Part shown: piece after piece, positions 1 to 11,212 of the stretch
Layout of the letters: each line of letters begins with the position of its first letter
Position numbering within the stretch: position 1 is the first letter of the stretch
The notes under the pieces: model-generated
What the model was told of the DNA's origin: nothing
Databases searched by the model: none
What the model saw: only the letters and a program-made list of their open reading frames with translations
Program-made: the position numbers and the translations under genes
Source of the DNA: a virus
Lineage: Duplodnaviria; Heunggongvirae; Uroviricota; Caudoviricetes
Direction: 5' to 3' (one strand)
Length of the DNA: 11,212 bases
Virus record (IMG/VR): IMGVR_UViG_2534681675_000018
Location: 1 to 11,212 of that record

Positions 1-435
1 GTGTTTTTTAGTCCATCTTTAAATATTTTTGTGAATCCTGCGCTTAAGGATGACTACATCAATGTAAATTCATGGCCAGATGATGCTGTTGAAGTTGATG
101 AGCAGGTGTATATTGAGTTTTCCGGATTACCGCCGAAAGGAAAAATCCGTATCGCTGGGGAAAATGGTTTTCCTGCATGGTCTGAAATTCCACCACCAAC
201 GCATGAGGAACAGATTGCCGCAGCCGAATTGAAAAAACAGCAATTGATTAATCAGTCCAACGAATATATGAATACCAAGCAATGGCCTGGTAAAGCGGCT
301 ATTGGTCGTCTGAAAGGTGAGGAACTGGCGCAATATAATTTGTGGCTGGATTATCTGGACGCACTGGAACTGGTTGATACCTCCAGTGCTCCAGATATTG
401 AATGGCCTACGCCTCCGGCAGTTCAGGCCAGATGA
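1..435 (+). CDS. tfa: Tail fibre assembly protein (Tfa, P2 gpG / Mu U-like chaperone); 5' end may lie upstream of the window
   Basis: C-terminus ...NLWLDYLDALELVDTSSAPDIEWPTPPA matches the conserved Tfa C-terminal motif and parallels the C-terminus of the convergent copy at 407..1000. ORF starts with GTG at base 1, so the N-terminus is uncertain. Stop TGA at 433..435. Confidence 0.78.
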   Translation: MFFSPSLNIFVNPALKDDYINVNSWPDDAVEVDEQVYIEFSGLPPKGKIRIAGENGFPAWSEIPPPTHEEQIAAAELKKQQLINQSNEYMNTKQWPGKAAIGRLKGEELAQYNLWLDYLDALELVDTSSAPDIEWPTPPAVQAR

Positions 436-1000
436 CATCCGGCGCGGTGCTCGTATCTGTTGCCGTCACCGCGTCAATGTAATCAAGCACGGCGTTAAGC
501 CGGGTGGTTTCTGCCTGCGTCAGCTTCCGCCCGGCCTGTAATTTCAGCTGAATCAGACTGATGGAAGCCATTGCAGCATCAATCAGTGACTGGCGCTGTG
601 CTTCTGCCGCTTCTACTGCGGCACCGTGTTGTGCCTCAGTATCTGTCACCCATTTCTCACCATCCCATTTATCGTATGGCGTTAACGGTGAAAGCGTGAC
701 ATAACCGTCTTTGATGGCACCGATATAATCCACTGTAACAGCAGCACCATTTTCGATTGAGTAAACAGTCTCATTGCGATGGTCTTCTTCATGGCTCCAT
801 CCCTTACCTGTAAATACTGCCACTCTTCCCGGAATGTTTTCGCCAGGGTCAATACCAGTTGAACAGGCGGGCATACTTACGCCAGTATTAATATATTCAT
901 CAGACCAGCCCGTATACTCAGATGTTTCAGCATCATAATAAAAACAACGCATATCACCCGGCACTGTAGCCAGCCCATTTTCATCAAAAACAGGTTTCAT
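407..1000 (-). CDS. tfa: Tail fibre assembly protein, alternate copy (Tfa') inside the invertible segment
   Basis: 197 aa ending ...LNAVLDYIDAVTATDTSTAPDVIWPELPEA (conserved Tfa C-terminus). Convergent with and overlapping the 3' end of the plus-strand tfa by 29 nt. Its ATG overlaps the TAA of the upstream fibre cassette by 1 nt (TAATG), implying translational coupling. Confidence 0.85.
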   Translation of the reverse strand: MKPVFDENGLATVPGDMRCFYYDAETSEYTGWSDEYINTGVSMPACSTGIDPGENIPGRVAVFTGKGWSHEEDHRNETVYSIENGAAVTVDYIGAIKDGYVTLSPLTPYDKWDGEKWVTDTEAQHGAAVEAAEAQRQSLIDAAMASISLIQLKLQAGRKLTQAETTRLNAVLDYIDAVTATDTSTAPDVIWPELPEA

Positions 1001-1506
1001 TATGCAGCCCTCACAATATAATTAAAGGCGATGTTACGTGGACGGTTTTCATTAGCTGTTGGCACGACACGAGAGGCGTCGAATCCAAGGTCATCGGTTT
1101 TGTCTATAGTAGTTGTGTTATTCGGCATTCTCGCTGATCGTGTTCCTGCATCGTAAAAAGCCCCTCTGATTGCATCAAAAGACATACCGATCCCGCCATC
1201 TGCGAATCCCTCAATATTTCTTATTGCATCCCCCTGTGAAGATAATAATTGTCGCCCGGCATCCACTCCACGTCCGTCATCCCAGCCACGAATAAATTCA
1301 CCGCGTAAATCAGGCAATTTATTTTTCGGATAAACCTTTGCCAGTTCCGGGTATTCTTCAGCAGAAAAAGCCGCACCGTTGCATTTCAGCCAGCCAGTAG
1401 GCGGTGTGGCTGAAGGCCACGGAACAGGCACACCAACGGGTAATGCTGAACCTTCTCCCAAACCAACGTTTAAGAAAATGCAGAGATTACGGCTAACTGG
1501 CATCAT
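1000..1506 (-). CDS. Alternate tail-fibre C-terminal (receptor-binding) cassette, promoterless in this orientation
   Basis: Gly-rich sequence with ...GVPVPWPSATPPTGW..., as I recall for variable C-terminal parts of Mu S/S', P1 S and e14/Rac Stf side fibres. No own promoter or RBS context; lies between tfa' and the invertase; contains a gix-like site near its 5' end. The first ATG reported by the ORF track is probably not a real start; the frame would be joined to a constant fibre N-terminus after inversion. Confidence 0.7.
   Translation of the reverse strand: MMPVSRNLCIFLNVGLGEGSALPVGVPVPWPSATPPTGWLKCNGAAFSAEEYPELAKVYPKNKLPDLRGEFIRGWDDGRGVDAGRQLLSSQGDAIRNIEGFADGGIGMSFDAIRGAFYDAGTRSARMPNNTTTIDKTDDLGFDASRVVPTANENRPRNIAFNYIVRAA
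1453..1478. other. Candidate Gin/Hin/Pin-type recombination (crossover) site
   Basis: TTCTCCCAAACC AA CGTTTAAGAAAA: two 12-bp imperfect inverted half-sites around a central AA. By eye about 19/26 identical to hixL (TTCTTGAAAACCAAGGTTTTTGATAA) and similar to gixL, both recalled from memory. Sits at the invertase-proximal edge of the alternate fibre cassette, where Mu gixR / e14 pix sites lie. Confidence 0.45.
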
Positions 1507-1533
1507 CCCCGGTTTTTATTCAGGGGATCCATC

Positions 1534-2133
1534 ATGCTTATTGGCTATGTCCGCGTATCAACAAATGACCAGAATACAGAATTGCAGCGTAACGCGCTGG
1601 AGTGCGCAGGATGTGAACTGATTTTTGAAGATAAAATCAGCGGAACGAAATCAGCCAGACCGGGATTGAAAAAACTGATCAGAACGCTATCAGAAGGAGA
1701 TACGCTGGTTGTCTGGAAGCTGGACAGACTGGGCAGAAGTATGAAACACCTGATCACGCTTATTGAGGAATTGCGGGAAAAAGGTGTTAATTTCCGTAGT
1801 CTGACGGACAGCATTGACACATCAACACCCATGGGGCGTTTCTTTTTTCACGTCATGGGGGCTTTAGCCGAAATGGAACGTGAATTAATTGTAGAGCGTA
1901 CACTGGCCGGGCTGGCGGCAGCGCGCGCACGGGGGCGCATTGGCGGACGTCGCCCGAAGTTGACAAAAGAACAACACGAGCAAATAGCGAGGCTGATTAA
2001 AAACGGTCATGACAGGAAACAACTGGCGATCATTTACGACATCGGCATATCGACGATTTATCGTTATCACCCTGTAGGCGATATACAGGCTGAAGAAACA
2101 ACCAGGCAGACTCAGGAAAATGAAAACCGCTAA
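1534..2133 (+). CDS. Serine DNA invertase (Gin/Hin/Pin/Cin family)
   Basis: 199 aa beginning MLIGYVRVSTNDQNTELQRNALECAGCE...VVWKLDRLGRSMKHLI...FRSLTDSIDTSTPMGRFFFHVMGALAEMERELI..., near-identical in motif content to Mu Gin as I recall it. Catalytic Ser in the RVS motif at residue 9; C-terminal HTH (GISTIYRY). SD AGGGGA 6 nt upstream of the ATG. Confidence 0.95.
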   Translation: MLIGYVRVSTNDQNTELQRNALECAGCELIFEDKISGTKSARPGLKKLIRTLSEGDTLVVWKLDRLGRSMKHLITLIEELREKGVNFRSLTDSIDTSTPMGRFFFHVMGALAEMERELIVERTLAGLAAARARGRIGGRRPKLTKEQHEQIARLIKNGHDRKQLAIIYDIGISTIYRYHPVGDIQAEETTRQTQENENR

Positions 2134-2152
2134 TCTGACCATTAGCGGTTTT
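2123..2152. terminator. Bidirectional hairpin between convergent invertase and gpU genes
   Basis: Perfect 12-bp inverted repeat AAAACCGCTAAT / ATTAGCGGTTTT separated by 6 bp (ctgacc), with A-run on one side and T-run on the other, so it can act as an intrinsic terminator in both directions. The invertase TAA stop (2131..2133) lies inside the left arm. Confidence 0.45.
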
Positions 2153-2159
2153 GCGTTAA

Positions 2160-2654
2160 TCAAAACAGCCCTTTAACGGAGCTGGCCGCGCTGTTAAGGG
2201 ATGATGTGACCTTATCTTTGAAGCCGGACAGCATATCGCTGAACGATGAGGATTGCAGGCGCTCCCGCAAATCCTCATCACAGCGTTCAAGGGTCAGTGA
2301 AAATTCTATCTTTTTCGCCTTACCGTAGCGATCAAACTCGGAGCGGGTCGTATTCGTTCCGGTCAGGACATACATGCCGTAAATCTGCCCGACACCATCA
2401 ATCAGAGGCCAGGGGCGTCCTGTATATGCCTGCGTGGTCAGCAACGAAAGCGATACTTCGCCACCTGTAATTTCAGGATAAAGCACACCAGAAAGAACGA
2501 TGCGATCATCGCCTGCCCCGATATACTGCCAGCTTGCTGAACGGTTAACGCGTTCATTTTTCACATGCCGCCAGCTTTTGTTTTGCTGTAACTGCTGATG
2601 CGGCAATGTGCGCAGCTCAAAAACAAACATGCCGTAGATCATCATCATGGCCAT
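2160..2654 (-). CDS. U: P2 gpU-like tail protein
   Basis: 164 aa, M(A)MMMIYGMFVFELRTLPHQQLQ... resembles the N-terminus of P2 gpU family tail proteins. Immediately downstream of the tape measure on the same strand (T stop 2661..2663, GAGGAG SD in between). True start may be the third ATG (2648). Confidence 0.75.
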   Translation of the reverse strand: MAMMMIYGMFVFELRTLPHQQLQQNKSWRHVKNERVNRSASWQYIGAGDDRIVLSGVLYPEITGGEVSLSLLTTQAYTGRPWPLIDGVGQIYGMYVLTGTNTTRSEFDRYGKAKKIEFSLTLERCDEDLRERLQSSSFSDMLSGFKDKVTSSLNSAASSVKGLF

Positions 2655-2660
2655 GACTCC

Positions 2661-5498
2661 TCAATCTTTATCGTAAAAACTGCCACGCCCGGCACGGGCG
2701 CGCCGTTCCATTTCTGCCCTGACCATTTCACCGACCAGTTTCGCCAGTTCGCGGGGATTCTGCGTAACAACGTTATGCAGATGAACATGAATTTCACCGC
2801 CAAATCCGGAGACAACAGGCTCCCGGTTACGGGAAGTTGCAGGAACTGATGCCACTGGCGATCGTATGGCCTCCGCCACCGGGCGGGAGCTGGCCGCAAC
2901 AACAGGGACCAGCGCCGGAGGCAGAGGAGTCGGGACCACGGGTGTGATGTTGATTGCGGAAGCTGGCTTACTGATCTGCGCAATCTTCCGCTCCTGCCAC
3001 TCCCCACGAACAGCAAGTGCGCGGGGCAGGTTCTTAAAGACAATATCGCCGGGGCCAATGCGTTTTTTCGTCTCATCAACCAGCTTACCTGTGTTATCAG
3101 CAATTTTGCTGAGTCTGCGTAGCGTACCGGTATTGCTGTCTGTGAGCGGTTTGTTGTCTTTGGGTTTATCACCTCCGGTGCCATTTTCCACAGGCTTCGG
3201 CGGATTGATTTTCGCCAGGTCCCCCTGAAGCAAGGCAACCTTGTCCTGAAGAATGGCCGCACGCTGTGCGTCTTCGATTTTCTTTCTCGCCCTTTCCGCT
3301 TCATCCGGAAGCACACCGAGTTTTTCAAGTATCCACGCCAGCGTATCCAGCAGCATTTTTGCAGGCGTCAGAACAAGCTGTAGCGCGCCACCAAGAACGT
3401 TACCGAATATCTCGCCAGCACTGGTACATTTATCCAGCGTTTCCTTGCTGGACTCCATCGGTGACAGCAGCGATTTAAACCAGTTAAAGAGCTGAATAAT
3501 CCCATCGCGCACGACATCAAAAACAGGACCAAACCGTTCAAAGGTTTCGCGCAACGGAGCCAGCCGTTCCATAATCCCACTGAACACCCCGGCATAAAAC
3601 GCCTTGATGGGTTCCCAGTATTTCCAGATGAGAACCGCCGCAGCCACAAACGCGGCAACAATCAATCCGACCGGACTGAACAGCGCCCCGATAGCGCCAC
3701 CCAGCAACGAGATGGAACCTGTTACCATTCCCCATAGTGCTGGCAGCACCCTGACGACATTCATTGATCCGGTCAGGAGAGAAAAACCAAGACGTAACGT
3801 GGCCAGTTTCCCGTGAAGCACGCCAATAACCAGCGACAACGAGCCAATCGTTGCAGTCATTGCCAGCAACGCACCGCCTGCTATCAGTAGCTGGCGCGTC
3901 AGTGCCGGATGGGCCTGCGCCAGCGCCGTCACCCTTGATACCACCCGCGTGAGCCACTGCGTGACAGAACGCAGCGGGCCGTCAATCAGATCTGCAATGC
4001 GGATGCGCAACCCTTCCCATGCACTGCCGAGTGATTTCAGATCGCCATCAAGGTTGTTGGCCATAACCTTTGCCGTGCGTTCAGCCTCACCGCGTGCGCC
4101 TTCAAGTTCTTTTCTCAGTTTGGGTAAGGAACCGTCACCTGCCGCATCAACGAGGGCCATAAACGATGTGAAAGCCTCTTCCCCGGCGATGTCCTTAAAG
4201 AAGGATACCCGGTCAACTTCCCCGTATTTGCGGGTGGCTTTATAAAGGTCGGCCAGCACATCCTCCATCGGGCGCATTTTGCCGTTCGCGTCAGAAACTG
4301 CCACACCAAGCTCTTTCAGCGCCTCTGCTGCTGCCTTTGGCGGTGATGCCAGACGAGCCAGGCTGGCACGCATTGCCGTCCCGGCATCACTCCCTCTGAT
4401 ACCCATATTCGCCAGCACGCCCGCCATCGCTGCGGCCTGCTCCAGCGATATTCCCAGCTTACCCGCCACCGGACCTGCATATTTCATGGTTTCGCCCAGT
4501 GCGCGAAGGTCAGTGTTGGTACGGGTAAACGCTGCGGTGAGTGTGTCACCAACCCGGTCCATCTGGTCAGCAGAAAGGCCGAACTGCGTCAGGATATTTG
4601 AGCCAATATCCGCCGTCTCGCCGAGATCCATGCCGCCAGCCGTTGCCATGCTCAGCACGCCCGGAAGCGCAGCCTGAATGGCCTGCGGTGTGAAGCCAGC
4701 CATTGCAAGAAATGCCTGTCCACTGGCGGCATCGCCTGCGGTGAACTGCGTTTCAGAGCCAAGTTTTAACGCCTGCTCACGCAGCGCCTTAAACTGTGGG
4801 CTGTTCTGGTCGATTCGCGTCAGTGCCTGAACGCGGGACATCTCTTTCCCGAACCCGATCGCAGGCTGCAAAAAACGCCCGGCAGCATAGCCGCCAGCCG
4901 CTGCCGCACCAATTGCCAGCGCACCACCTGTTTTCAGTTTTCCAGCAGTTTCCTGCGCGCGCGAATACCGCTCACGCGCCCGCGTTACACGCGCAAGCGT
5001 CTGCCGTTCGCGTTCAAGCTGGTTGTTGTACTGTTCGGTGCGTCTGATGGCCTGCTGGATGGTGTTATCGCTGCCTGTCAGGGAAATGCCGTGGCGTTTC
5101 AGCTCTCCGCCAAGCTCCCGCATTTTCTGAATTTCCCGTGTGCGCGATTCATTCAGGCGTTCAAGCCGGGTGCTTAACTGCTGCATCAGCTTTTGTTGTT
5201 TTTCGCTGAGCACTGTACCCGTGCGTTGTAACTGATTAAGGGCGTTAAGCTGGCGTCGTGCTTTCACGATGCTCGCATCCGCTTTACTGACAGCGTCACG
5301 GGCGCGCTCAAATGAACGCGCCTGACGCTCGAGATTTTTGATCGCCCCCTGCGTTCGCTGGATGGAGTCACCAAACTGCCCCATCAGGCGGCGGGCGTTT
5401 TCGGCAGGCCGGGTCAGCCTGTCAACGGCGCTGAAAGCGACCCGGATATCAAGAGTCTTCATTGTCTGCATTCCCGCTGCGAAGTGCCGCCCGCTCAC
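2661..5498 (-). CDS. T: Tail tape measure protein (P2 gpT-like)
   Basis: 945 aa with coiled-coil-rich N-terminal third (repeated Q/R/E/L heptad-like stretches), Gly/Ala-rich central region and hydrophobic segments, typical of tape measure proteins. Position after the E/E' chaperone pair and before gpU. GTG start at 5498 is the longest option; ATG at 5471 or 5462 are alternatives. Confidence 0.9.
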   Translation of the reverse strand: MSGRHFAAGMQTMKTLDIRVAFSAVDRLTRPAENARRLMGQFGDSIQRTQGAIKNLERQARSFERARDAVSKADASIVKARRQLNALNQLQRTGTVLSEKQQKLMQQLSTRLERLNESRTREIQKMRELGGELKRHGISLTGSDNTIQQAIRRTEQYNNQLERERQTLARVTRARERYSRAQETAGKLKTGGALAIGAAAAGGYAAGRFLQPAIGFGKEMSRVQALTRIDQNSPQFKALREQALKLGSETQFTAGDAASGQAFLAMAGFTPQAIQAALPGVLSMATAGGMDLGETADIGSNILTQFGLSADQMDRVGDTLTAAFTRTNTDLRALGETMKYAGPVAGKLGISLEQAAAMAGVLANMGIRGSDAGTAMRASLARLASPPKAAAEALKELGVAVSDANGKMRPMEDVLADLYKATRKYGEVDRVSFFKDIAGEEAFTSFMALVDAAGDGSLPKLRKELEGARGEAERTAKVMANNLDGDLKSLGSAWEGLRIRIADLIDGPLRSVTQWLTRVVSRVTALAQAHPALTRQLLIAGGALLAMTATIGSLSLVIGVLHGKLATLRLGFSLLTGSMNVVRVLPALWGMVTGSISLLGGAIGALFSPVGLIVAAFVAAAVLIWKYWEPIKAFYAGVFSGIMERLAPLRETFERFGPVFDVVRDGIIQLFNWFKSLLSPMESSKETLDKCTSAGEIFGNVLGGALQLVLTPAKMLLDTLAWILEKLGVLPDEAERARKKIEDAQRAAILQDKVALLQGDLAKINPPKPVENGTGGDKPKDNKPLTDSNTGTLRRLSKIADNTGKLVDETKKRIGPGDIVFKNLPRALAVRGEWQERKIAQISKPASAINITPVVPTPLPPALVPVVAASSRPVAEAIRSPVASVPATSRNREPVVSGFGGEIHVHLHNVVTQNPRELAKLVGEMVRAEMERRARAGRGSFYDKD

Positions 5499-5987
5499 GC
5501 CAGCTAACCACTTCGCCGGGCGTCATCATGAAGATTTCGGCGGGCGACCAGTTAAAAATGGCGGCGATATCTGCCACCAGATCTTCGATGTGCTCAAAGC
5601 ACACCAGGGTGATTACGCTGCCGTCTCCTGCACGCTCTTCGCGCCAGAGTCTGGCTCGCTCATAAAATTTACAGCCACAGCGCACAACTGAATAAAATCG
5701 CGTGACGACATTTTTTTAATCATCACTTCATCCAGTCGTGGCGAGGTCACGCGAGGCAACAGCGTGAACATGGTATCCGCTTTCAGATTCAGCACATCAG
5801 ACAGCGACAGACCACGCAGGGATCCAGCCTGTTCAATAGCCCCGGTGATCTCCACATACGTGATTTTTTCGCCACCACGCTCAATTGGTCGGGTCAGTTT
5901 TACGCCACGTTCGACAGCCATATCCTCACCTGCCGTCACATCATCCACCACGGTGTTATTCCGGGTTTCAGTATCGATGTCTTTCAT
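5449..5987 (-). CDS. Predicted E+E' fusion chaperone made by programmed -1 ribosomal frameshift (E codons 1-92 joined to the -1 frame ending at 5449)
   Basis: The -1 frame relative to E has no stop from the A7 run at 5711..5717 down to 5449 and overlaps the tape measure start. This matches the conserved tail-chaperone frameshift architecture (lambda G/GT, P2 E/E+E'). Confidence 0.55.
5613..5987 (-). CDS. E: Tail assembly chaperone (P2 gpE-like)
   Basis: 124 aa ORF directly between the tube gene and the tape measure, with AAGGAG SD 6-7 nt upstream of the ATG at 5987. An A7 run (5711..5717) lies in the coding sequence and a -1 frame is open from that point to 5449, the hallmark of the E/E+E' pair. 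Confidence 0.7.
   Translation of the reverse strand: MKDIDTETRNNTVVDDVTAGEDMAVERGVKLTRPIERGGEKITYVEITGAIEQAGSLRGLSLSDVLNLKADTMFTLLPRVTSPRLDEVMIKKMSSRDFIQLCAVAVNFMSEPDSGAKSVQETAA
5711..5717 (-). other. Putative -1 frameshift slippery site (A AAA AAA on the coding strand)
   Basis: T7 on the plus strand = A7 on the coding strand, read as AUU AAA AAA AUG in the E frame. Slipping back one base on the Lys codons reads AAU GUC GUC... in the open E' frame. Confidence 0.5.
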
Positions 5988-6042
5988 CAGTTTTCTCCTT
6001 TTCAGTCAGAGGCGACGCACTGCGCCGCCTGCATATTACTTA

Positions 6043-6555
6043 TCAGCCAAGCCCGAGCGCGGAACGGATACGGTCAGGCACAATGTCCTTGCCGTCCTTC
6101 CGGTAGATGTGGTTCAACAGGTCGATTTCCCACAGCGGGCGATCGTTAACGCTCAGCTTGTAGTAGGTGTTTTTGACAGCGTAAGTGTGTGATGTGGCTT
6201 CGCCCTGTTTGGCTTCCCCCATATCAATTTCCGTCACACGTCCGCGCATCTCGATTTCATACAGATCGCTTTCTGCATCGGTGTAGTATTCACCCGCAAA
6301 ACGCAGCAGCGTGCCGTCAATCGCGCCGCCATATTTAAGGAACAGCGCACGAACAGCTCCCCCCATGACAAAACTCGCATCAAGCGCGGAGTCGTCCAGA
6401 CCGAGATCAATACTTACCGCCCCCATCATGCCACCACCACGATAGCTGTCGGTTTTGCGCGTCAGTTTGGGCGGCGTGACGGATGTCACTTTACCCACTT
6501 CGTTTTCACCATCCACAAACAACGTAAAAAAGCGAAGATGTTTTGGTACAGCCAT
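6043..6555 (-). CDS. FII: Tail tube protein (P2 FII-like)
   Basis: 170 aa immediately downstream of the sheath gene. Sheath stop and tube start overlap (TGATG) at 6553..6557. Size and position match the contractile-tail tube protein. Confidence 0.88.
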   Translation of the reverse strand: MAVPKHLRFFTLFVDGENEVGKVTSVTPPKLTRKTDSYRGGGMMGAVSIDLGLDDSALDASFVMGGAVRALFLKYGGAIDGTLLRFAGEYYTDAESDLYEIEMRGRVTEIDMGEAKQGEATSHTYAVKNTYYKLSVNDRPLWEIDLLNHIYRKDGKDIVPDRIRSALGLG

Positions 6556-7739
6556 CAGGCACCTCCCAGCACCGCAAATGCGGGACCAAAGAATTCATCA
6601 GTAAACGTCTGGTAAAGCTCCATGTCTTCCAGCGGGGGAACAGGCGTATATTTGTAGCGAATACGCACACGTCCCTGACGTAAATTCGTGGTGCCGTTAT
6701 CCACCACGTCATACCAGCACTCCGCACCAATCAGTTTCCCGGCAGTAACCAGCGAATCCAGTTTTGCCCTGATGGCGCTGATAACATCCTTCACGTTCGC
6801 AGGTGTCAGTGGACTGTCGATGGTTTCAAACTGCGCTTCCGCAATTGAATCAGCCAGCACCTGTGCGGTTCGGGTATACACCTCAAAGATGTAGGCGTTC
6901 GTTTCCGGTGTGCGGTTGCCCCAGAAGCGGAACCCGTTGCGACGAATAATGGTCGTGATTTCTTTGTTGTTGAGGCTGTTGGCATCGCTGTCTTCGGCCT
7001 GCAACGACCAGAACACATGCCTGGACATCCCCAGCACATTTTTAACCGGAACGTTGGACAGCGATTTGTGCCAGCCCTGTTCATGGTCAATGTACGCACG
7101 AAGGCCGCACGCATAGGCAGGCGCGGGGAACGTTTCGTTTTCGCCACTTTTCGGGTTGTAGGCGATGAAGTCCGGCCATAAGAGCATCACTTCACGTTCG
7201 TTGAATTTCTGGCGGTAGGTAATCGCTTCAGCCATCGTGTTACAGCCGTGACATGAGGCATACACAAATGCGCGCAGTTTACCCGCAATCACGCACAGGG
7301 ATTTTGTCACCGCCTCCGTGTCCAGCTCCGGCGCGGCCAGAATACGCGGACGGTATCCGATGCTTTCATCCTGCTCTGCAACAAGCAGCGCATACATCCC
7401 CGTATAGCTGCCGTCATCCTCAGAACCACCGATAACCAGTTGATCCTGCGTCTTTTCGTCTTCTTCTTTGTGTTCAGCCACGCGAACGACGATCACCTTT
7501 GTGCTCACCTGGTCTGCGATGGCCTTAAGCGCACGATAAAGCGTCCCCGTTGTCCCGCATTTCCCCAGCACGTCATTGACGCGGGTCAGCAGTGTGGGCT
7601 TGTTCAGCGGGAACAGCTTCGCGTCCGCATCATCCGCCGTTGCCACGATACCGATAACGCTGGAATCAACATCGTTAATCGCTGTTACCAGGTCGGTATT
7701 TTCCGTAACACGGGCACCATGAAAACGAGTTTCACTCAT
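6555..7739 (-). CDS. FI: Contractile tail sheath protein (P2 FI-like)
   Basis: 394 aa, the size of P2 FI; first gene of the sheath-tube-chaperone-tape measure order; AAGGGG SD upstream of the ATG at 7739. Confidence 0.9.
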   Translation of the reverse strand: MSETRFHGARVTENTDLVTAINDVDSSVIGIVATADDADAKLFPLNKPTLLTRVNDVLGKCGTTGTLYRALKAIADQVSTKVIVVRVAEHKEEDEKTQDQLVIGGSEDDGSYTGMYALLVAEQDESIGYRPRILAAPELDTEAVTKSLCVIAGKLRAFVYASCHGCNTMAEAITYRQKFNEREVMLLWPDFIAYNPKSGENETFPAPAYACGLRAYIDHEQGWHKSLSNVPVKNVLGMSRHVFWSLQAEDSDANSLNNKEITTIIRRNGFRFWGNRTPETNAYIFEVYTRTAQVLADSIAEAQFETIDSPLTPANVKDVISAIRAKLDSLVTAGKLIGAECWYDVVDNGTTNLRQGRVRIRYKYTPVPPLEDMELYQTFTDEFFGPAFAVLGGA

Positions 7740-7896
7740 AGCTTCAGCCCCTTGTATCCGTTAAATGATTCAGCAACAATCATCACCCACCACGCGCGTA
7801 ATCTCACCCCTGCGCTATTCTCCCGTCACGGCGACAACAAAAAGCAGTAACCCACTCCGCACGCACATGCGACCATGCCGCACAGGGAGGGAACAG

Positions 7897-9006
7897 ATGA
7901 CCGACACCACCATGCAATTGCTCAGTCAGGGCACAGACCCCGTGAAAATGCCGGATTTTGATATTCTCGCGGAGGGTAAAACGTTGTCAGGCGTGGCAGA
8001 GCGCCTGATGAGCCTGTCACTGACCGACAACCGGGGATTTGAGGCGGACCAGCTCACCATCACGCTGGATGATGCGGATGGTCAGTTGCAGCTACCGCTA
8101 CGGGGCGCGCGCCTGACGGTTCTCATTGGCTGGAAGGGAGAACCGCTGACAGAAAAAGGCACTTACATTGTTGATGAAATCGCTCACGAAGGACCGCCGG
8201 ACAGGCTGACTGTTTCAGCCAGAAGCGCAGATTTTCGGGATGAATTTAACGTTAAACGTGAGGTGTCCTGGCATGATGTGACCATTGAGCGTGTGGTATC
8301 CGCCATCGCTCATCGGTATGGTCTGAAACCGCAAATCAGCGAAATGCTGATGGATATCGAAATCGACCACGCCGACCAGACCGAAGAAAGCGACATGTCC
8401 TTCCTTACGCGCATGGCGGAAATGCTGGGCGCAATCACCACGGTAAAAAGCGGCAATCTGTTATTCATCATGCCAGGTGGTGGCGTGAACGCACAGGGCC
8501 AGCCGTTGCCCTCGTTCGCCATTACACGCAGCAGCGGCGATCGCCATCAGTTCCGTATTGCTGACCGCGAGGCTTATACGGGGGTACGCGCCTACTGGCT
8601 TGATCTTAATTACGGGAAAAAGAAAAAAGTCAGCGTAAAACGCCGTAAACCGCCAAAACCCAAAAAGGAGAAAAGCAGCAGCCGTGAAGGTGATTATATG
8701 GAAGGCGCGGAAGGCAATGTGTTTGTGTTACGCAAGACTTATCAGAACGAGCAGGCAGCAAGACGCGCAGCGGCGGCAAAGTGGCAGCAACTACAACGCG
8801 GAGCCGCAGCGTTCTCCATCACGCTGGCGCGTGGACGTGCAGAACTCTACCCCGAAATGCATGGCACGGTAACAGGATTTAAAAGCGAGATTGATAATCA
8901 GGACTGGATCATTGCAAAAGCCGAGCACACCATTGATAACAGTGGCTTTACCACGCAGCTTGAGCTTGAAGCAAAAATCCCGGAATGGATAGCAGAAACA
9001 GAGTGA
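7897..9006 (+). CDS. D: P2 gpD-like tail protein (late control gene D family)
   Basis: Start chosen at ATG 7897 (MTDTTMQLLSQGTDPVKMPDFDILAEGKTL...) because it has a strong SD AGGGAGG 6 nt upstream. The upstream part of the track ORF (7765..7896) is low-complexity and not protein-like. About 369 aa, the size of gpD, and followed directly by ogr as in P2. Confidence 0.85.
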   Translation: MTDTTMQLLSQGTDPVKMPDFDILAEGKTLSGVAERLMSLSLTDNRGFEADQLTITLDDADGQLQLPLRGARLTVLIGWKGEPLTEKGTYIVDEIAHEGPPDRLTVSARSADFRDEFNVKREVSWHDVTIERVVSAIAHRYGLKPQISEMLMDIEIDHADQTEESDMSFLTRMAEMLGAITTVKSGNLLFIMPGGGVNAQGQPLPSFAITRSSGDRHQFRIADREAYTGVRAYWLDLNYGKKKKVSVKRRKPPKPKKEKSSSREGDYMEGAEGNVFVLRKTYQNEQAARRAAAAKWQQLQRGAAAFSITLARGRAELYPEMHGTVTGFKSEIDNQDWIIAKAEHTIDNSGFTTQLELEAKIPEWIAETE

Positions 9007-9048
9007 GCAACTTAGAATAGCGGCAGCACCACGTTAAGGGAGGTCGCT

Positions 9049-9309
9049 ATGTTCCGTTGTCCGCTTTGTGGCGCATCTGCCCGTATCCGCACCAGTCGTC
9101 CGGAAAATGATTCAAACACCGTGCGGCAAAAGTATTACCAGTGTAACAATCTGGAATGCGGCGTATGCTTCTCAACACTGGAAGCTTTCCATAAATTCAC
9201 ATCGAAACATGCCTCCGGCGTTCACTCTTCAGAAGGTATCCCGTGGCATGAGCTGCCAGCTTCACACAGGGGAAACAATCAGATGAGCTTGCCTTTATCT
9301 CAGAATTAA
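9049..9309 (+). CDS. ogr: Ogr/Delta-family zinc-finger late transcription activator
   Basis: MFRCPLCGASARIRTSR...YYQCNNLECGVCF... has the C-x2-C-x22-C-x4-C arrangement and the MFxCPLC N-terminus of P2 Ogr. SD AAGGGAGG 5 nt upstream. Confidence 0.85.
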   Translation: MFRCPLCGASARIRTSRPENDSNTVRQKYYQCNNLECGVCFSTLEAFHKFTSKHASGVHSSEGIPWHELPASHRGNNQMSLPLSQN

Positions 9310-9318
9310 CAGGCAGAA

Positions 9319-9347
9319 TTGCCGGAGTAACAAAAAAGCGATAGATT
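9319..9347 (+). promoter_or_regulatory. Candidate sigma70 promoter for the Hok-like toxin transcript
   Basis: TTGCCG - 17 bp - TAGATT immediately after the ogr stop. The predicted transcript 5' end (about 9352..9356, GCGCGGGUGCC) would give a roughly 400-nt RNA ending at the 9720..9744 hairpin, the size class of hok mRNAs. Confidence 0.3.
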
Positions 9348-9369
9348 ACGCGCGGGTGCCTTTCGGCTG

Positions 9370-9633
9370 ATGGTCGGAGGGAATACCCGAAGGCCGGATG
9401 TGGAAAGGCCCCGGAAAACATTTCTGTTTAACCGAGGCCCTAACCGCATTACCTTGACAAGTGAAAGGTTAGCGCCTCTCCGGAAAAGGAGCAAGTGCTA
9501 TGTCGCAAAAATCGCTTACGGCCATCACGTTCTGCGTGACGGCAATCCTCATCATCTGGATGCTGCATGGTTCGCTGTGCGAAATACGGATGAGCTTCTG
9601 GGGAGCGGAGTTTGCGGCGTTCTTACAGTGTAA
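9370..9633 (+). CDS. Possible mok-like overlapping reading frame (modulator of toxin translation)
   Basis: Open frame starting upstream of the toxin ORF, overlapping almost all of it and ending 7 nt before its stop, the same geometry as mok/hok. Protein is low-complexity, so it may only serve translational coupling. Real start uncertain (ATG 9370 or GTG 9400). Confidence 0.3.
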   Translation: MVGGNTRRPDVERPRKTFLFNRGPNRITLTSERLAPLRKRSKCYVAKIAYGHHVLRDGNPHHLDAAWFAVRNTDELLGSGVCGVLTV

Positions 9634-9640
9634 GCAGTAA
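9500..9640 (+). CDS. hok: Hok/Gef-family type I toxin (46 aa small membrane protein)
   Basis: Not in the ORF track (below 60 aa). ATG 9500 with SD AAGGAG 8 nt upstream; TAA at 9638..9640. Protein MSQKSLTAITFCVTAILIIWMLHGSLCEIRMSFWGAEFAAFLQCKQ has an N-terminal hydrophobic helix with C-V-T-A-I and C-terminal SLCEIR...E.AAF, matching Hok (...KSLCEIRYRDGHREVAAF...). Confidence 0.65.
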   Translation: MSQKSLTAITFCVTAILIIWMLHGSLCEIRMSFWGAEFAAFLQCKQ

Positions 9641-9719
9641 GGAAACCGCGACGGGGGAGCAATCCCCCGTCAATCGGTTGCCAGGGTATGGTCGAAGTGG
9701 CACCCAAATTTAAATTGAG

Positions 9720-9744
9720 GCCCACCAGTAAGAGTGGTGGGTTT
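9720..9744 (+). terminator. Weak hairpin/terminator at the 3' end of the toxin transcript
   Basis: CCCACCA gtaagag TGGTGGG followed by TTT; flanked by palindromic AAATTTAAATT-type repeats. Confidence 0.3.
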
Positions 9745-9775
9745 AACGCTTATTTAAATTTGAAAGGAACTCTTT

Positions 9776-10078
9776 ATGAGTGAAATGGTATTTTGTCGCG
9801 GATGCGGCAAGGAAATACATAAAGATGCCACATCCTGCCCCAATTGTGGAGCACCTCAAAGAACAGCAAGTTCAAAAAGCAGAATGACAGCCGCACTACT
9901 GGCTTTCTTTTTAGGTGGTCTTGGTGCACACAAATTTTATTTAGGTAAAGTGGGGCAAGGATTCCTTTACCTTATTTTTGCTGGACATTCATTCCGGCAA
10001 TCGTGGCATTTATTGAGTTTTTTATCTATCTATGCACCTCTGATGAAGACTTTGCCCGCAAATATGGCTAATGCCTAG
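9776..10078 (+). CDS. Zinc-ribbon / TM2-domain membrane protein, with apparently frameshifted C-terminus
   Basis: N-terminal CRGCG...CPNCG zinc ribbon, then LLAFFLGGLGAHKFYLGK (TM2-domain-like first helix and GAH+FY motif). After the T5 run at 9975..9979 the -1 frame encodes a clean second helix and acidic tail (CWTFIPAIVAFIEFFIYLCTSDEDFARKYG, stop 10069..10071), whereas the in-frame continuation (AGHSFRQSWHLLSFLSIYAPLMKTLPANMANA) is not helix-like. SD AAAGGA 7 nt upstream of the ATG. Confidence 0.7.
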   Translation: MSEMVFCRGCGKEIHKDATSCPNCGAPQRTASSKSRMTAALLAFFLGGLGAHKFYLGKVGQGFLYLIFAGHSFRQSWHLLSFLSIYAPLMKTLPANMANA

Positions 10079-10097
10079 TGGGCGAATCAGAATGACA

Positions 10098-10131
10098 AAC
10101 CCGCAGCATAAAAACTGCGGGTTTTCTTTTT
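10098..10131 (+). terminator. Rho-independent terminator downstream of the TM2 gene
   Basis: AAACCCGCAG cataaaaa CTGCGGGTTT followed by TCTTTTT: GC-rich 7-bp stem (extendable by A-T pairs) plus a U-run. Confidence 0.75.
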
Positions 10132-10155
10132 GTCACCCTCACAAATGAGGGTAAC
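10132..10155. promoter_or_regulatory. Near-perfect palindrome (possible operator or second terminator hairpin)
   Basis: GTCACCCTCA caaa TGAGGGTAAC: 10-bp arms matching 9/10, 4-bp spacer, directly after the terminator U-run and upstream of the GATC dyad. Confidence 0.3.
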
Positions 10156-10175
10156 ACCACTCATAAGTAATAGGC

Positions 10176-10229
10176 ATAACAGATCGATGCAATAAATCCG
10201 ATCGATAAAAACGATCGATTTGTTATCAT
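10176..10229. promoter_or_regulatory. Dyad-symmetric element with three GATC (Dam) sites overlapping a -10-like hexamer; putative methylation-sensitive operator/promoter of the com-like operon
   Basis: GATC at 10182..10185, 10200..10203 and 10213..10216, each within GATCGAT. Outer arms ATAACAGATCGAT (10176..10188) and ATCGATTTGTTAT (10214..10226) are inverted repeats (12/13), with the symmetry centre on the middle GATC. TATCAT -10-like hexamer at 10224..10229 overlaps the right arm; com-like start codon is about 35 nt downstream. Confidence 0.45.
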
Positions 10230-10263
10230 ATCGGCAGCAGTAACCACACAAGAGGTGCCGCAA

Positions 10264-10461
10264 ATGACGCAAAATGTACGATGCAAAAATTGCAACAAAC
10301 TACTTGCCCGCGCCTCATTTCACTACATTGAAATAAAATGTCCGCGCTGCAAAACACTTAACCAGATAACGAGAGCCATCGAGCACCCCACACACATGAG
10401 GAGTTATGACCGTGGGGATCGCAATCCAGCACCAACCAGCACATACACCGGAACACACTAA
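10264..10461 (+). CDS. com: Com-like zinc-finger translational regulator
   Basis: MTQNVRCKNCNKLLARASFHYIEIKCPRCKTLNQITRAIEHPT... closely parallels Mu Com as I recall it (MKSIRCKNCNKLLF...HIEIRCPRCK...EHPT), including the four-Cys zinc finger. ATG 10264 preferred over the track's GTG 10255 (SD AGAGG 8 nt upstream). The 3' end overlaps the methyltransferase start by 56 nt, as com overlaps mom. Confidence 0.75.
   Translation: MTQNVRCKNCNKLLARASFHYIEIKCPRCKTLNQITRAIEHPTHMRSYDRGDRNPAPTSTYTGTH
10386..10417 (+). promoter_or_regulatory. Predicted RNA stem-loop sequestering the methyltransferase SD and start codon
   Basis: CCCCAC (10386..10391) pairs with GTGGGG (10412..10417). The 20-nt loop contains GAGGAG (10398..10403) and the ATG at 10406; a fourth GATC sits at 10417..10420. 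Analogous to the translation-inhibition stem of the Mu mom mRNA that Com relieves. Confidence 0.35.
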
Positions 10462-11212
10462 GGTTTATCAGACTGACAATGCCACGCTCTGTCGTGGGAA
10501 TGCGCTGGAAATATTGCCGCTGATTGAGCCAGAAAGCATTGATGCCTTAATCACTGACCCGCCTTACAGTTCGGGTGCGACACACAAGGCCGGACGCACC
10601 AACCAAGGCAGCCATGCAAAATATCTGAACGGCGAGAACCTTCACCGCTTTGATGGGTTCGCGGGTGAAAACATGGACGCCCGTTCGTGGGCTTACTGGA
10701 CACAATTATGGATGGCACAGGCACACCGCGCAGTCAGGCCGGGCGGTTATGCCCTGGTATTTACTGACTGGCGACAACTACCAGCTTTAACCGATGCGTT
10801 TCAGGCCAGCGGCTTTACATGGCGCGGCATCATTGCGTGGAACAAGGGGAGGGGGTCACGAACACCCCATACGGGGTATTTCAGGCATCAGTGCGAATAC
10901 ATCGTCTGGGGCAGCAAAGGCCATTTAGATAAATCGCCTTCGGGGCCGTTCGACGGCTGCATGACGTACCCGGTTATCCCGTCAAAGAAAATGCACCCGA
11001 CCGGAAAACCAGAAGAACTAATGGCGGAACTGGTCAGGACTGTGAATAGTGGCGGAACAGTCCTTGATCCTTTTATGGGGTCAGGGACAACGGGTGTGGC
11101 TGCACTGAAAGCAGGGCGAAAATTTATTGGTATAGAAACCAGTGATCATTATTTTGAGGTAGCAGCGCAGCGGCTTCGGGGGACTATTACCACAACCATT
11201 TCGGCTACATAA
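10406..11212 (+). CDS. DNA methyltransferase, beta-class amino-methyltransferase (N6-adenine or N4-cytosine; DPPY motif)
   Basis: 268 aa with catalytic motif IV LITDPPYSSG near the N-terminus and AdoMet-binding motif I (LDPFMGSGTTGVAALKAGRKFIGIE) near the C-terminus. This motif order defines the beta group. Start at ATG 10406 or GTG 10412; stop TAA is the last three bases of the window. No restriction endonuclease partner in the window. Confidence 0.9.
   Translation: MTVGIAIQHQPAHTPEHTKVYQTDNATLCRGNALEILPLIEPESIDALITDPPYSSGATHKAGRTNQGSHAKYLNGENLHRFDGFAGENMDARSWAYWTQLWMAQAHRAVRPGGYALVFTDWRQLPALTDAFQASGFTWRGIIAWNKGRGSRTPHTGYFRHQCEYIVWGSKGHLDKSPSGPFDGCMTYPVIPSKKMHPTGKPEELMAELVRTVNSGGTVLDPFMGSGTTGVAALKAGRKFIGIETSDHYFEVAAQRLRGTITTTISAT

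Follow-up and report, generated by a model that had tools for sequence, protein, structure and literature searches.

We report that the end of a P2-like prophage, contained in positions 1 to 11,212 of the IMG/VR virus record IMGVR_UViG_2534681675_000018 (11,212 nucleotides (nt); Caudoviricetes; hereafter the window), carries what is probably a self-contained DNA-modification cassette, in which an orphan beta-class DNA methyltransferase is the cargo of a control module reused from the mom operon of phage Mu. The cassette comprises com, a gene for a small zinc-ribbon protein, the methyltransferase gene that overlaps its end, a predicted Com recognition site on the RNA, a hairpin enclosing the methyltransferase start and a predicted promoter region with three GATC sites. 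An earlier note on this DNA, made from the sequence alone, had described the region as a Mu mom-operon architecture, and the analogy holds, with the Com protein, the RNA motif, the inhibitory stem and the GATC triad all aligning with Mu. The Mu com-mom operon (genes 54 and 55; NC_000929 35768-36602) also shares with the window cassette its position at the prophage end, and the resemblance, as judged from the alignments, is one of homology at the nucleotide level.

The com gene and the methyltransferase

The com gene (10264..10461, plus strand) encodes a 65-residue CCCC zinc ribbon with two CxxC pairs, predicted to function as an RNA-binding translational activator. Its product matches Pfam family PF10122 (Zn_ribbon_Com; E 9.5e-12, 44.6 bits against a cutoff of 22.9) and the PHROG family 'gpCom control of modification' (2e-17), is identical to Mu Com at 25 of 42 residues (60%, over the finger), and retains all 11 family-invariant residues (R6, C7, C10, K12, L13, L14, E23, C26, R28, C29 and K30), in agreement with the Com-like zinc-finger protein that had been proposed for this open reading frame (ORF). 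A Shine-Dalgarno sequence read from the DNA, AAGAGG (10250..10255, plus strand), lies 8 nt before the ATG at 10264. The GTG at 10255, which is the com start in the annotation of Escherichia phage Chuche, was rejected because it overlaps AAGAGG, and because the N-terminus of Mu Com lines up with ATG 10264. In E. coli RefSeq genomes (locus L173, 4185-4382), the Prokaryotic Genome Annotation Pipeline (PGAP) names the product 'Com family DNA-binding transcriptional regulator', a misleading name given that the literature has Com as an RNA-binding translational activator.

The methyltransferase gene (10406..11212, plus strand) lies in the same orientation downstream of com, overlaps it by 56 nt (10406-10461) and ends at the final base of the window; a com-payload overlap is present at most of the 160 com loci that we surveyed. 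Its product, with 268 residues when read from the ATG and 266 when read from the GTG discussed below, is an N6/N4 amino DNA methyltransferase matching PF01555 (N6_N4_Mtase; E 2.3e-33, 116 bits against a cutoff of 26.7), and, in the order typical of the beta class, its motif IV (DPPY; residues 51-54, nt 10556-10567) precedes its motif I (FMGSG; residues 223-227, nt 11072-11086). Both the DPPY methyltransferase and its overlap with com were thus found at exactly the coordinates first proposed. All 47 invariant columns in an alignment of 40 homologues are kept, so that the enzyme appears intact, its catalytic and S-adenosylmethionine (AdoMet)-binding residues included.

The AlphaFold model of the enzyme has a pLDDT (predicted local distance difference test) of 87, and its nearest solved folds are CcrM, M.BceJIV, M1.HpyAVI, the rotifer N4-cytosine methyltransferase (N4CMT), MboIIA and RsrI, at 20-25% identity. 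The top structural match is an N4-cytosine enzyme; the fold search confirms the beta class and does not separate N6-methyladenine (m6A) from N4-methylcytosine (m4C) activity, in keeping with the initial caution that neither the target nor the base can be read from the sequence. The DPPY motif and the best sequence neighbors (M1.HpyAVI and CcrM) favor m6A, and N6-adenine is most likely the modified base. Literature searches yielded nothing usable on a characterized specificity for this enzyme or on this cassette in P2-like prophages.

Three candidate relationships were discarded in the course of this assignment. The D12 class (PF02086) was ruled out by the lack of a PF02086 match, by the opposite motif order (D12 enzymes have FxGxG at the N-terminal side of DPPY) and by clustering, which places the enzyme apart from the 66 D12-type payloads found behind com. 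Assignment to the M.EcoGII family was rejected since the alignment with the phage 1720a-02 homologue extends over the AdoMet-binding end alone (33% identity over 67 residues). M.EcoGIX, first considered as a non-specific prophage enzyme, was dropped as a comparison because the literature describes it as plasmid-borne and specific for single strands.

Predicted Com recognition site and inhibitory hairpin

The target of Mu Com, as determined by systematic evolution of ligands by exponential enrichment (SELEX) and by selective 2'-hydroxyl acylation analyzed by primer extension (SHAPE), is bipartite and built on GAG(N)2CC, with a six-residue loop presenting CC(N)2-3GAG; the short hairpin that bears this loop is closed by a C-G pair and lies proximal to the inhibitory structure, the stem of which contains the GUG start of Mom (PMC6483171). 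The window contains a sequence that fits this description exactly. The predicted Com site (10371..10387, plus strand), GAGAGCC-AUC-GAGCACC (GAGAGCCAUCGAGCACC), has both copies of GAG(N)2CC, the intervening CC(N)2-3GAG, a 6-nt loop (CAUCGA) and the C-G closing pair. The small hairpin pairs G73 with C86, G75 with C84 and, to close the loop, C76 with G83 (last two digits of the coordinates), leaving A74 and A85 mismatched. The bipartite GAGNNCC-N3-GAGNNCC motif occurs once in the window, against an expectation of 0.01 occurrences.

The corresponding site is widespread among com loci and bears the marks of selection on RNA. The motif GA-NNGC-C-(1-6 nt)-GA-GCNN-C is present in 108 of 131 distinct com junctions, in varying frames relative to com, and the two free stem positions of the hairpin pair in 53 of 57 and 47 of 57 distinct sites, values that none of 10,000 shuffles reaches for either position. 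The pair types include A-U, G-C, U-A, C-G and G-U, and this covariation across the family argues that the Com hairpin is a real, selected RNA structure. Rfam holds no family over the Com site or the inhibitory hairpin; its matches in 9000-11212 amount to a sub-threshold sok match, described below, and noise.

Directly adjoining the Com site is the predicted translation-inhibition hairpin (10386..10417, plus strand), with the outer arms CCCCAC (10386-10391) and GTGGGG (10412-10417) separated by 20 nt, an inner CAUGA/UUAUG stem and GGAG in the apical loop. The final bases of the Com site are the first bases of this stem, as they are in Mu. Taken alone, the hairpin (37 nt) folds at -14.3 kcal/mol compared to -8.0 +/- 2.2 kcal/mol in shuffled sequences (z -2.9), with 3 of 200 shuffles equaling it; the 101-nt fold around the junction is not significant as a whole (z -0.9), whereas the hairpin by itself is. 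Family-wide, the stretch of 50 nt downstream of the Com site folds better than its shuffles (mean z -1.45, compared to -0.30 in control windows), and the 5' arm of the inhibitory structure begins in or adjoining the Com site in 67 of 75 cases, often reusing the 3' arm of the Com hairpin. When the Com site is forced to remain unpaired, as an in-silico proxy for Com binding, the predicted stability is halved both in the window (from -15.8 to -8.1 kcal/mol) and in Mu (from -10.7 to -5.0 kcal/mol).

The correspondence with Mu extends to individual bases. In Mu, GAAUGCCUGCGAGCAUC is followed by UCCCAC-GGAGAAACAUU-GUGGGA and, in the window, GAGAGCCAUCGAGCACC is followed by CCCCAC-(20 nt)-GUGGGG; both have GGAG in the loop, GUG in the 3' arm and a Com site placed directly 5' of the stem and sharing bases with it. 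The outer stem differs from that of Mu by one compensatory change, from U:A to C:G, and by nothing else, and the same outer stem recurs in sibling cassettes that carry C5-cytosine (C5) methyltransferase, Mom or beta-class genes. Unlike Mu, the window has an additional in-frame ATG 6 nt before the GTG and one mismatch in the Com hairpin, and its com-payload overlap is 56 nt, compared to 80 nt in Mu.

Within the ribosome-binding region of the methyltransferase (10399..10414, plus strand), AGGAG (10399-10403) and the ATG at 10406 lie between the two arms of the hairpin, as originally described. The codon at which translation begins is a separate matter, on which that description has to be amended. 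Both the ATG at 10406, which falls in the inner stem, and the in-frame GTG at 10412, which falls in the 3' arm, are enclosed by the hairpin, at distances of 2 and 8 nt, respectively, from AGGAG. The GUG equivalent to the latter is the Mom start in Mu (PMC6483171), sibling Mom and C5 cassettes offer only the GTG of the 3' arm as a start, and the beta-class cassette of Salmonella (L169) has no ATG and an in-frame GTG 8 nt after AAGGAG. The representative of the NCBI cluster, with 266 residues, likewise fits a start at GTG 10412. We therefore consider GTG 10412 more likely than ATG 10406 to be the true start or, at least, the ancestral one.

Predicted promoter region

Upstream of com lies a putative OxyR/Dam control region (10170..10216, no strand assigned) with GATC sites at 10182, 10200 and 10213. 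Their spacing of 18 and 13 base pairs (bp) is that of Mu Pmom region I and close to the 19 and 13 bp of agn43, and the best match to the OxyR consensus in the entire window falls here, scoring 15/20 where agn43 scores 14/20 and the Mu site, a proven one, 13/20. The sites align one by one among the window, Mu, agn43 and the cassette of a Yersinia prophage (L167), which has kept the triad despite changes in the sequence between sites. The window, Mu and agn43 are alike in having three GATC within an OxyR-type consensus site that can be aligned column by column; they differ in where these fall, which is over the -35 element and spacer of the predicted promoter in the window, just downstream of the start point in agn43 and 50-90 bp upstream in Mu, and the OxyR site of the window is putative. 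Variants of the triad occur in relatives: a 31-bp deletion between GATCGAT repeats has left one site in L004, one site reads GAAC in L088, and L104 and L105 have none.

The only promoter-like site in 9000-11212 is a predicted sigma-70 promoter (10202..10229, plus strand) that overlaps GATC sites 2 and 3, with a -35 element TCGATA (10202-10207), an extended TG (10221-10222) and, after a 16-nt spacer, a -10 element TATCAT (10224-10229). TGnTATCAT is conserved in the Yersinia cassette, and C5 sibling cassettes have a TATACT hexamer at the same offset from GATC 3. Transcription would start from this promoter. The -10 element follows GATC 3 directly in the window, whereas in Mu it lies about 40 bp downstream, and no site for the Mu C protein is present between GATC 3 and com in the window. 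The earlier note had counted two layers of control; the count is probably three, with Dam and OxyR likely forming the additional layer at the promoter.

Payload exchange among com loci

Genomes and viral contigs supplied the 160 com loci that we examined. The gene that follows com encodes a D12 adenine methyltransferase of the Hia5/Hin1523 type in 66 loci (an assignment to PF02086 that was checked with Pfam on one com-linked locus, L014), a Mom-like protein in 37, a beta-class methyltransferase in 34 and a C5 methyltransferase in 11. The beta-class payloads include distant members in Pseudoalteromonas and Cellvibrionaceae, and that of the window clusters apart from the Mom-like group, which contains Mu. 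The same beta clade is found with com in prophages of Yersinia (72% protein identity) and Salmonella (67%), where the regulatory elements are conserved.

Evidence that payloads have been swapped, as had been surmised for the window, comes from sibling cassettes in which a near-identical com module precedes either Mom or a C5 methyltransferase: at two enterobacterial loci the com module is 88% identical and identity falls to background immediately after GTGGGG. The converse is also seen, with the mom genes of Mu and L134 being 94% identical behind diverged control modules. The variety of payload classes across the 160 loci argues that Com acts as a translational gate that can be combined with different DNA-modification genes.

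The occurrence of Com before C5 cytosine methyltransferases (PF00145) involves loci L005, L117, L119, L127-L132, L041 and L081, of which the enterobacterial ones share the Com site and the CCCCAC/GUGGGG stem. In the searchable literature we found no description of this pairing, of a beta-class payload behind com, of a P2-like host element for the module, of a GATC/OxyR triad conserved outside Mu, or of the range of payload classes associated with com.

Relation to known systems

The arrangement of com followed by a methyltransferase gene is not new. Com precedes a DNA methyltransferase that replaces mom in FluMu (HI1522.1/Hin1523), in Pnm1 (Nma1821), in the Hia5 island and in phage B3 (ORF47/48), and putative Com sites have been noted for cassettes of this type (PMC3299994); the exact pair seen here is annotated in phage Chuche and by PGAP. 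These published cassettes resemble that of the window in having a Com site and an inhibitory hairpin at the methyltransferase start (L055), and their enzymes in being orphan and presumably late and protective against restriction. They differ in their setting, which is that of Mu-like prophages of Pasteurellaceae, Neisseria and Pseudomonas without a GATC triad, rather than a P2-like prophage with one, and in the class of enzyme. Hin1523, Nma1821 and Hia5 are Dam-like, with DpnM and T4 Dam as closest structural homologues and DPPY near residues 191-194 (PMC3299994), whereas the window enzyme belongs to the beta class, with DPPY at residue 51. Non-specific m6A activity has been demonstrated for enzymes of the former type; for the window enzyme, m6A activity is a prediction.

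The difference from Mu lies likewise in payload and host element, with a PF01555 methyltransferase in the place of Mom and a P2-like myovirus in that of a transposable phage. Among beta-class enzymes, CcrM, M.BceJIV, M1.HpyAVI and M.EcoGII share with the window enzyme the fold, an N-terminal DPPY and a C-terminal FxGxG, and M.EcoGII is, like it, a prophage-borne orphan (PMC5778455); none of them is known to be controlled by Com.

Genetic setting

As its ORF map and Pfam matches show, the window represents the end of a P2-like prophage where the late and tail genes lie, in which tail-fiber pieces and a Gin/Cin-type invertase are followed by gpU, tape measure, tail tube and sheath genes, gpD (7765-9006) and ogr (9049-9309). 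The same survey found no Mor/C gene in the window. The window DNA shares 99.9% identity with E. coli strain 89-3156, in which the methyltransferase gene closes the prophage and adjoins the host raiA. The isolated phage Chuche also has the com-methyltransferase cassette, as do 171 of the 5426 complete E. coli genomes (at least 80% query coverage, mostly at least 95% identity).

No endonuclease partner is encoded near the cassette, which is flanked upstream by a TM2-domain gene and hok and downstream by raiA in strain 89-3156, by ihfA in Yersinia and by an integrase gene in Chuche. Because this genomic context lacks an endonuclease, the earlier designation of the methyltransferase as an orphan, not part of a restriction-modification system, is confirmed.

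The TM2-domain gene (9776-10078), the product of which is a small membrane protein bearing a zinc ribbon at its N-terminus, is a moron-like gene placed directly before the com cassette and is missing from phage Chuche. It has a strong intrinsic terminator of its own (10097..10124, plus strand), formed by a 10-bp stem that contains 6 GC pairs and, after it, a run of T, which is predicted to shield the com cassette from transcription upstream. Right after this terminator is a second hairpin (10133-10155), CACCCTCA-caaa-TGAGGGT, for which relatives have paired variants (GCCCTCA/TGAGGGC and ATCCTCA/TGAGGAC) or, as in Chuche, no hairpin; it could be an operator or the remnant of a small insertion.

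A hok/sok-like locus (9354-9640) occupies the interval between ogr and the TM2-domain gene. It comprises a Rfam sok match (9354-9513; 46 bits, E 1.2e-8) that falls under the gathering score and a Hok/Gef ORF (9500-9640), and the order hok-com-methyltransferase is also seen in the Yersinia prophage. At the other end of the window, the serine invertase of the Gin/Cin type (1534-2133) adjoins opposite-strand ORFs for a tail-fiber C-terminal part and an assembly protein, which suggests that the region 407-2133 is an invertible host-range segment, akin to the Mu G and P1 C segments, in a P2-like phage.

Proposed mechanism and alternative explanations

In the mechanism we put forward, the promoter at about 10202-10229 would drive a single com-methyltransferase transcript and, lying within the three-GATC OxyR-type site, would be shut by OxyR bound to un- or hemimethylated DNA and opened by full Dam methylation. 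On this transcript, the methyltransferase Shine-Dalgarno and start (ATG 10406, GTG 10412 or both) would be sequestered in the -14 kcal/mol hairpin. Com, made first from the same mRNA, would bind its bipartite GAGNNCC hairpin, which shares bases with the foot of the inhibitory stem; the stem would thereby be destabilized and initiation allowed, as expected by homology with Mu, for which this effect has been shown experimentally. The enzyme, most likely acting on N6-adenine, would then methylate phage DNA, and host DNA as well if expressed, with protection from restriction in the next host as the presumed benefit.

Several observations weigh against this proposal. Ribosomes translating com cross the inhibitory stem, and coupling in cis could open it with no need for Com binding. 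The Com hairpin of the window and all its close relatives has an A.A (or A.C) mismatch, such that three of the four stem pairs form, and it does not appear in the unconstrained fold. At the promoter, GATC sites have been lost in some relatives (L004, L104 and L105), and reading of the sequence between GATC 3 and com finds no Mu C site (a TTAT-N6-ATAA palindrome), which Mu has as ATTATgccccaATAA. There is no P2 Ogr site (TGT-N12-ACA) upstream either, and a late promoter of the Ogr type was rejected because the single match in the window sits within com. The PGAP label designates Com as a DNA-binding transcriptional regulator, in conflict with the published biochemistry of Mu Com. Lastly, some members of the methyltransferase clade to which the window enzyme belongs have no com, so that Com control is not obligatory for the enzyme. 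These com-free members (54-81% identity; L164-L166, L170 and L171) lie in other late contexts: downstream of Mor and lysis genes in the late operons of Mu-like prophages, within an HP1/P2-like lysis cassette, and immediately behind ogr. Their existence weakens the suggestion that such strict control reflects an enzyme harmful when made at the wrong time.

A different reading of the promoter region would give the cassette a role beyond that of a late lytic function, as an epigenetic switch in the manner of agn43, with competition between Dam and OxyR rendering com and the methyltransferase phase-variable in lysogens, as a prophage-borne 'phasevarion'. Phase variation could arise here because the GATC/OxyR site lies over an extended -10 promoter that looks independent of activators and has no C or Ogr site. 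We regard this as a tentative and rather unlikely possibility. If it held, a lysogen population would split into methylated and unmethylated subpopulations, with the Com gate adding a threshold, and the specificity of the enzyme might also be short or relaxed, as in the Com-gated Mom and Hia5.

Translational coupling alone would account for the junction if ribosomes on com opened the hairpin and the Com protein were a relic or acted elsewhere. The passage of the com ORF (10264-10461) straight through the hairpin at 10386-10417 and the imperfection of the Com hairpin, noted above, speak for such a view; Mu com, however, also reads through its stem, and there Com is nonetheless required and bound to RNA (PMC6483171). 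In the window, moreover, the zinc ribbon is conserved and so is the bipartite motif, in its exact form, and the family-wide covariation of the binding hairpin implies that contact between protein and RNA has been selected for. Coupling alone is, on these grounds, unlikely compared to a Com-dependent gate.

We hold it very unlikely that the cassette is a decaying or silent moron, drifting to loss with no useful expression. Truncated methyltransferase ORFs are found in some relatives (L085 and L102), which, with the loss of GATC sites already mentioned, speaks for decay, and lysogens keep prophage methyltransferases such as M.EcoGII silent (PMC5778455). Against this, both window ORFs are intact with all family-invariant residues kept, the cassette is carried by an isolated phage and by 171 complete E. 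coli genomes, for the most part with identities of at least 95% in the latter, and its regulatory elements are conserved as far as Yersinia and Salmonella. That Com instead binds DNA as a transcription factor of the operon, the hairpin being incidental, can hardly be maintained: the PGAP name and an older statement that the promoter is positively regulated by Com (PMC3299994) point that way, but biochemistry places Com on the mom mRNA hairpin (PMC6483171), the conserved motif lies in the transcript, in sense orientation and just before the payload start, within a covarying RNA stem, and the promoter region has no copy of it.

Implications

The reuse of the Mu mom control module by a P2-like prophage, which we take to be the probable explanation, has practical consequences for annotation, where the PGAP product name is misleading and the payload start is probably the GTG in the stem, and for methylome studies, where an absent or unassigned motif is to be expected because methyltransferases of this kind would usually be silent without Com. 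The natural GATC variants in L004, L088, L104 and L105 would be ready-made tests of the Dam/OxyR layer. For enzyme discovery, Com-gated genes flag potentially toxic modifiers of broad specificity, of the Hia5 type, that are valuable as tools.

The protection of phage DNA from restriction by a tightly gated orphan methyltransferase is expected biology. With this cassette, the control logic of Mu com and mom has a second, clean example in an element that is not a Mu-like phage; Com, the RNA site that it recognizes, the hairpin that inhibits translation and the GATC triad of the Dam/OxyR layer would travel as a module while the enzyme behind them is exchanged.

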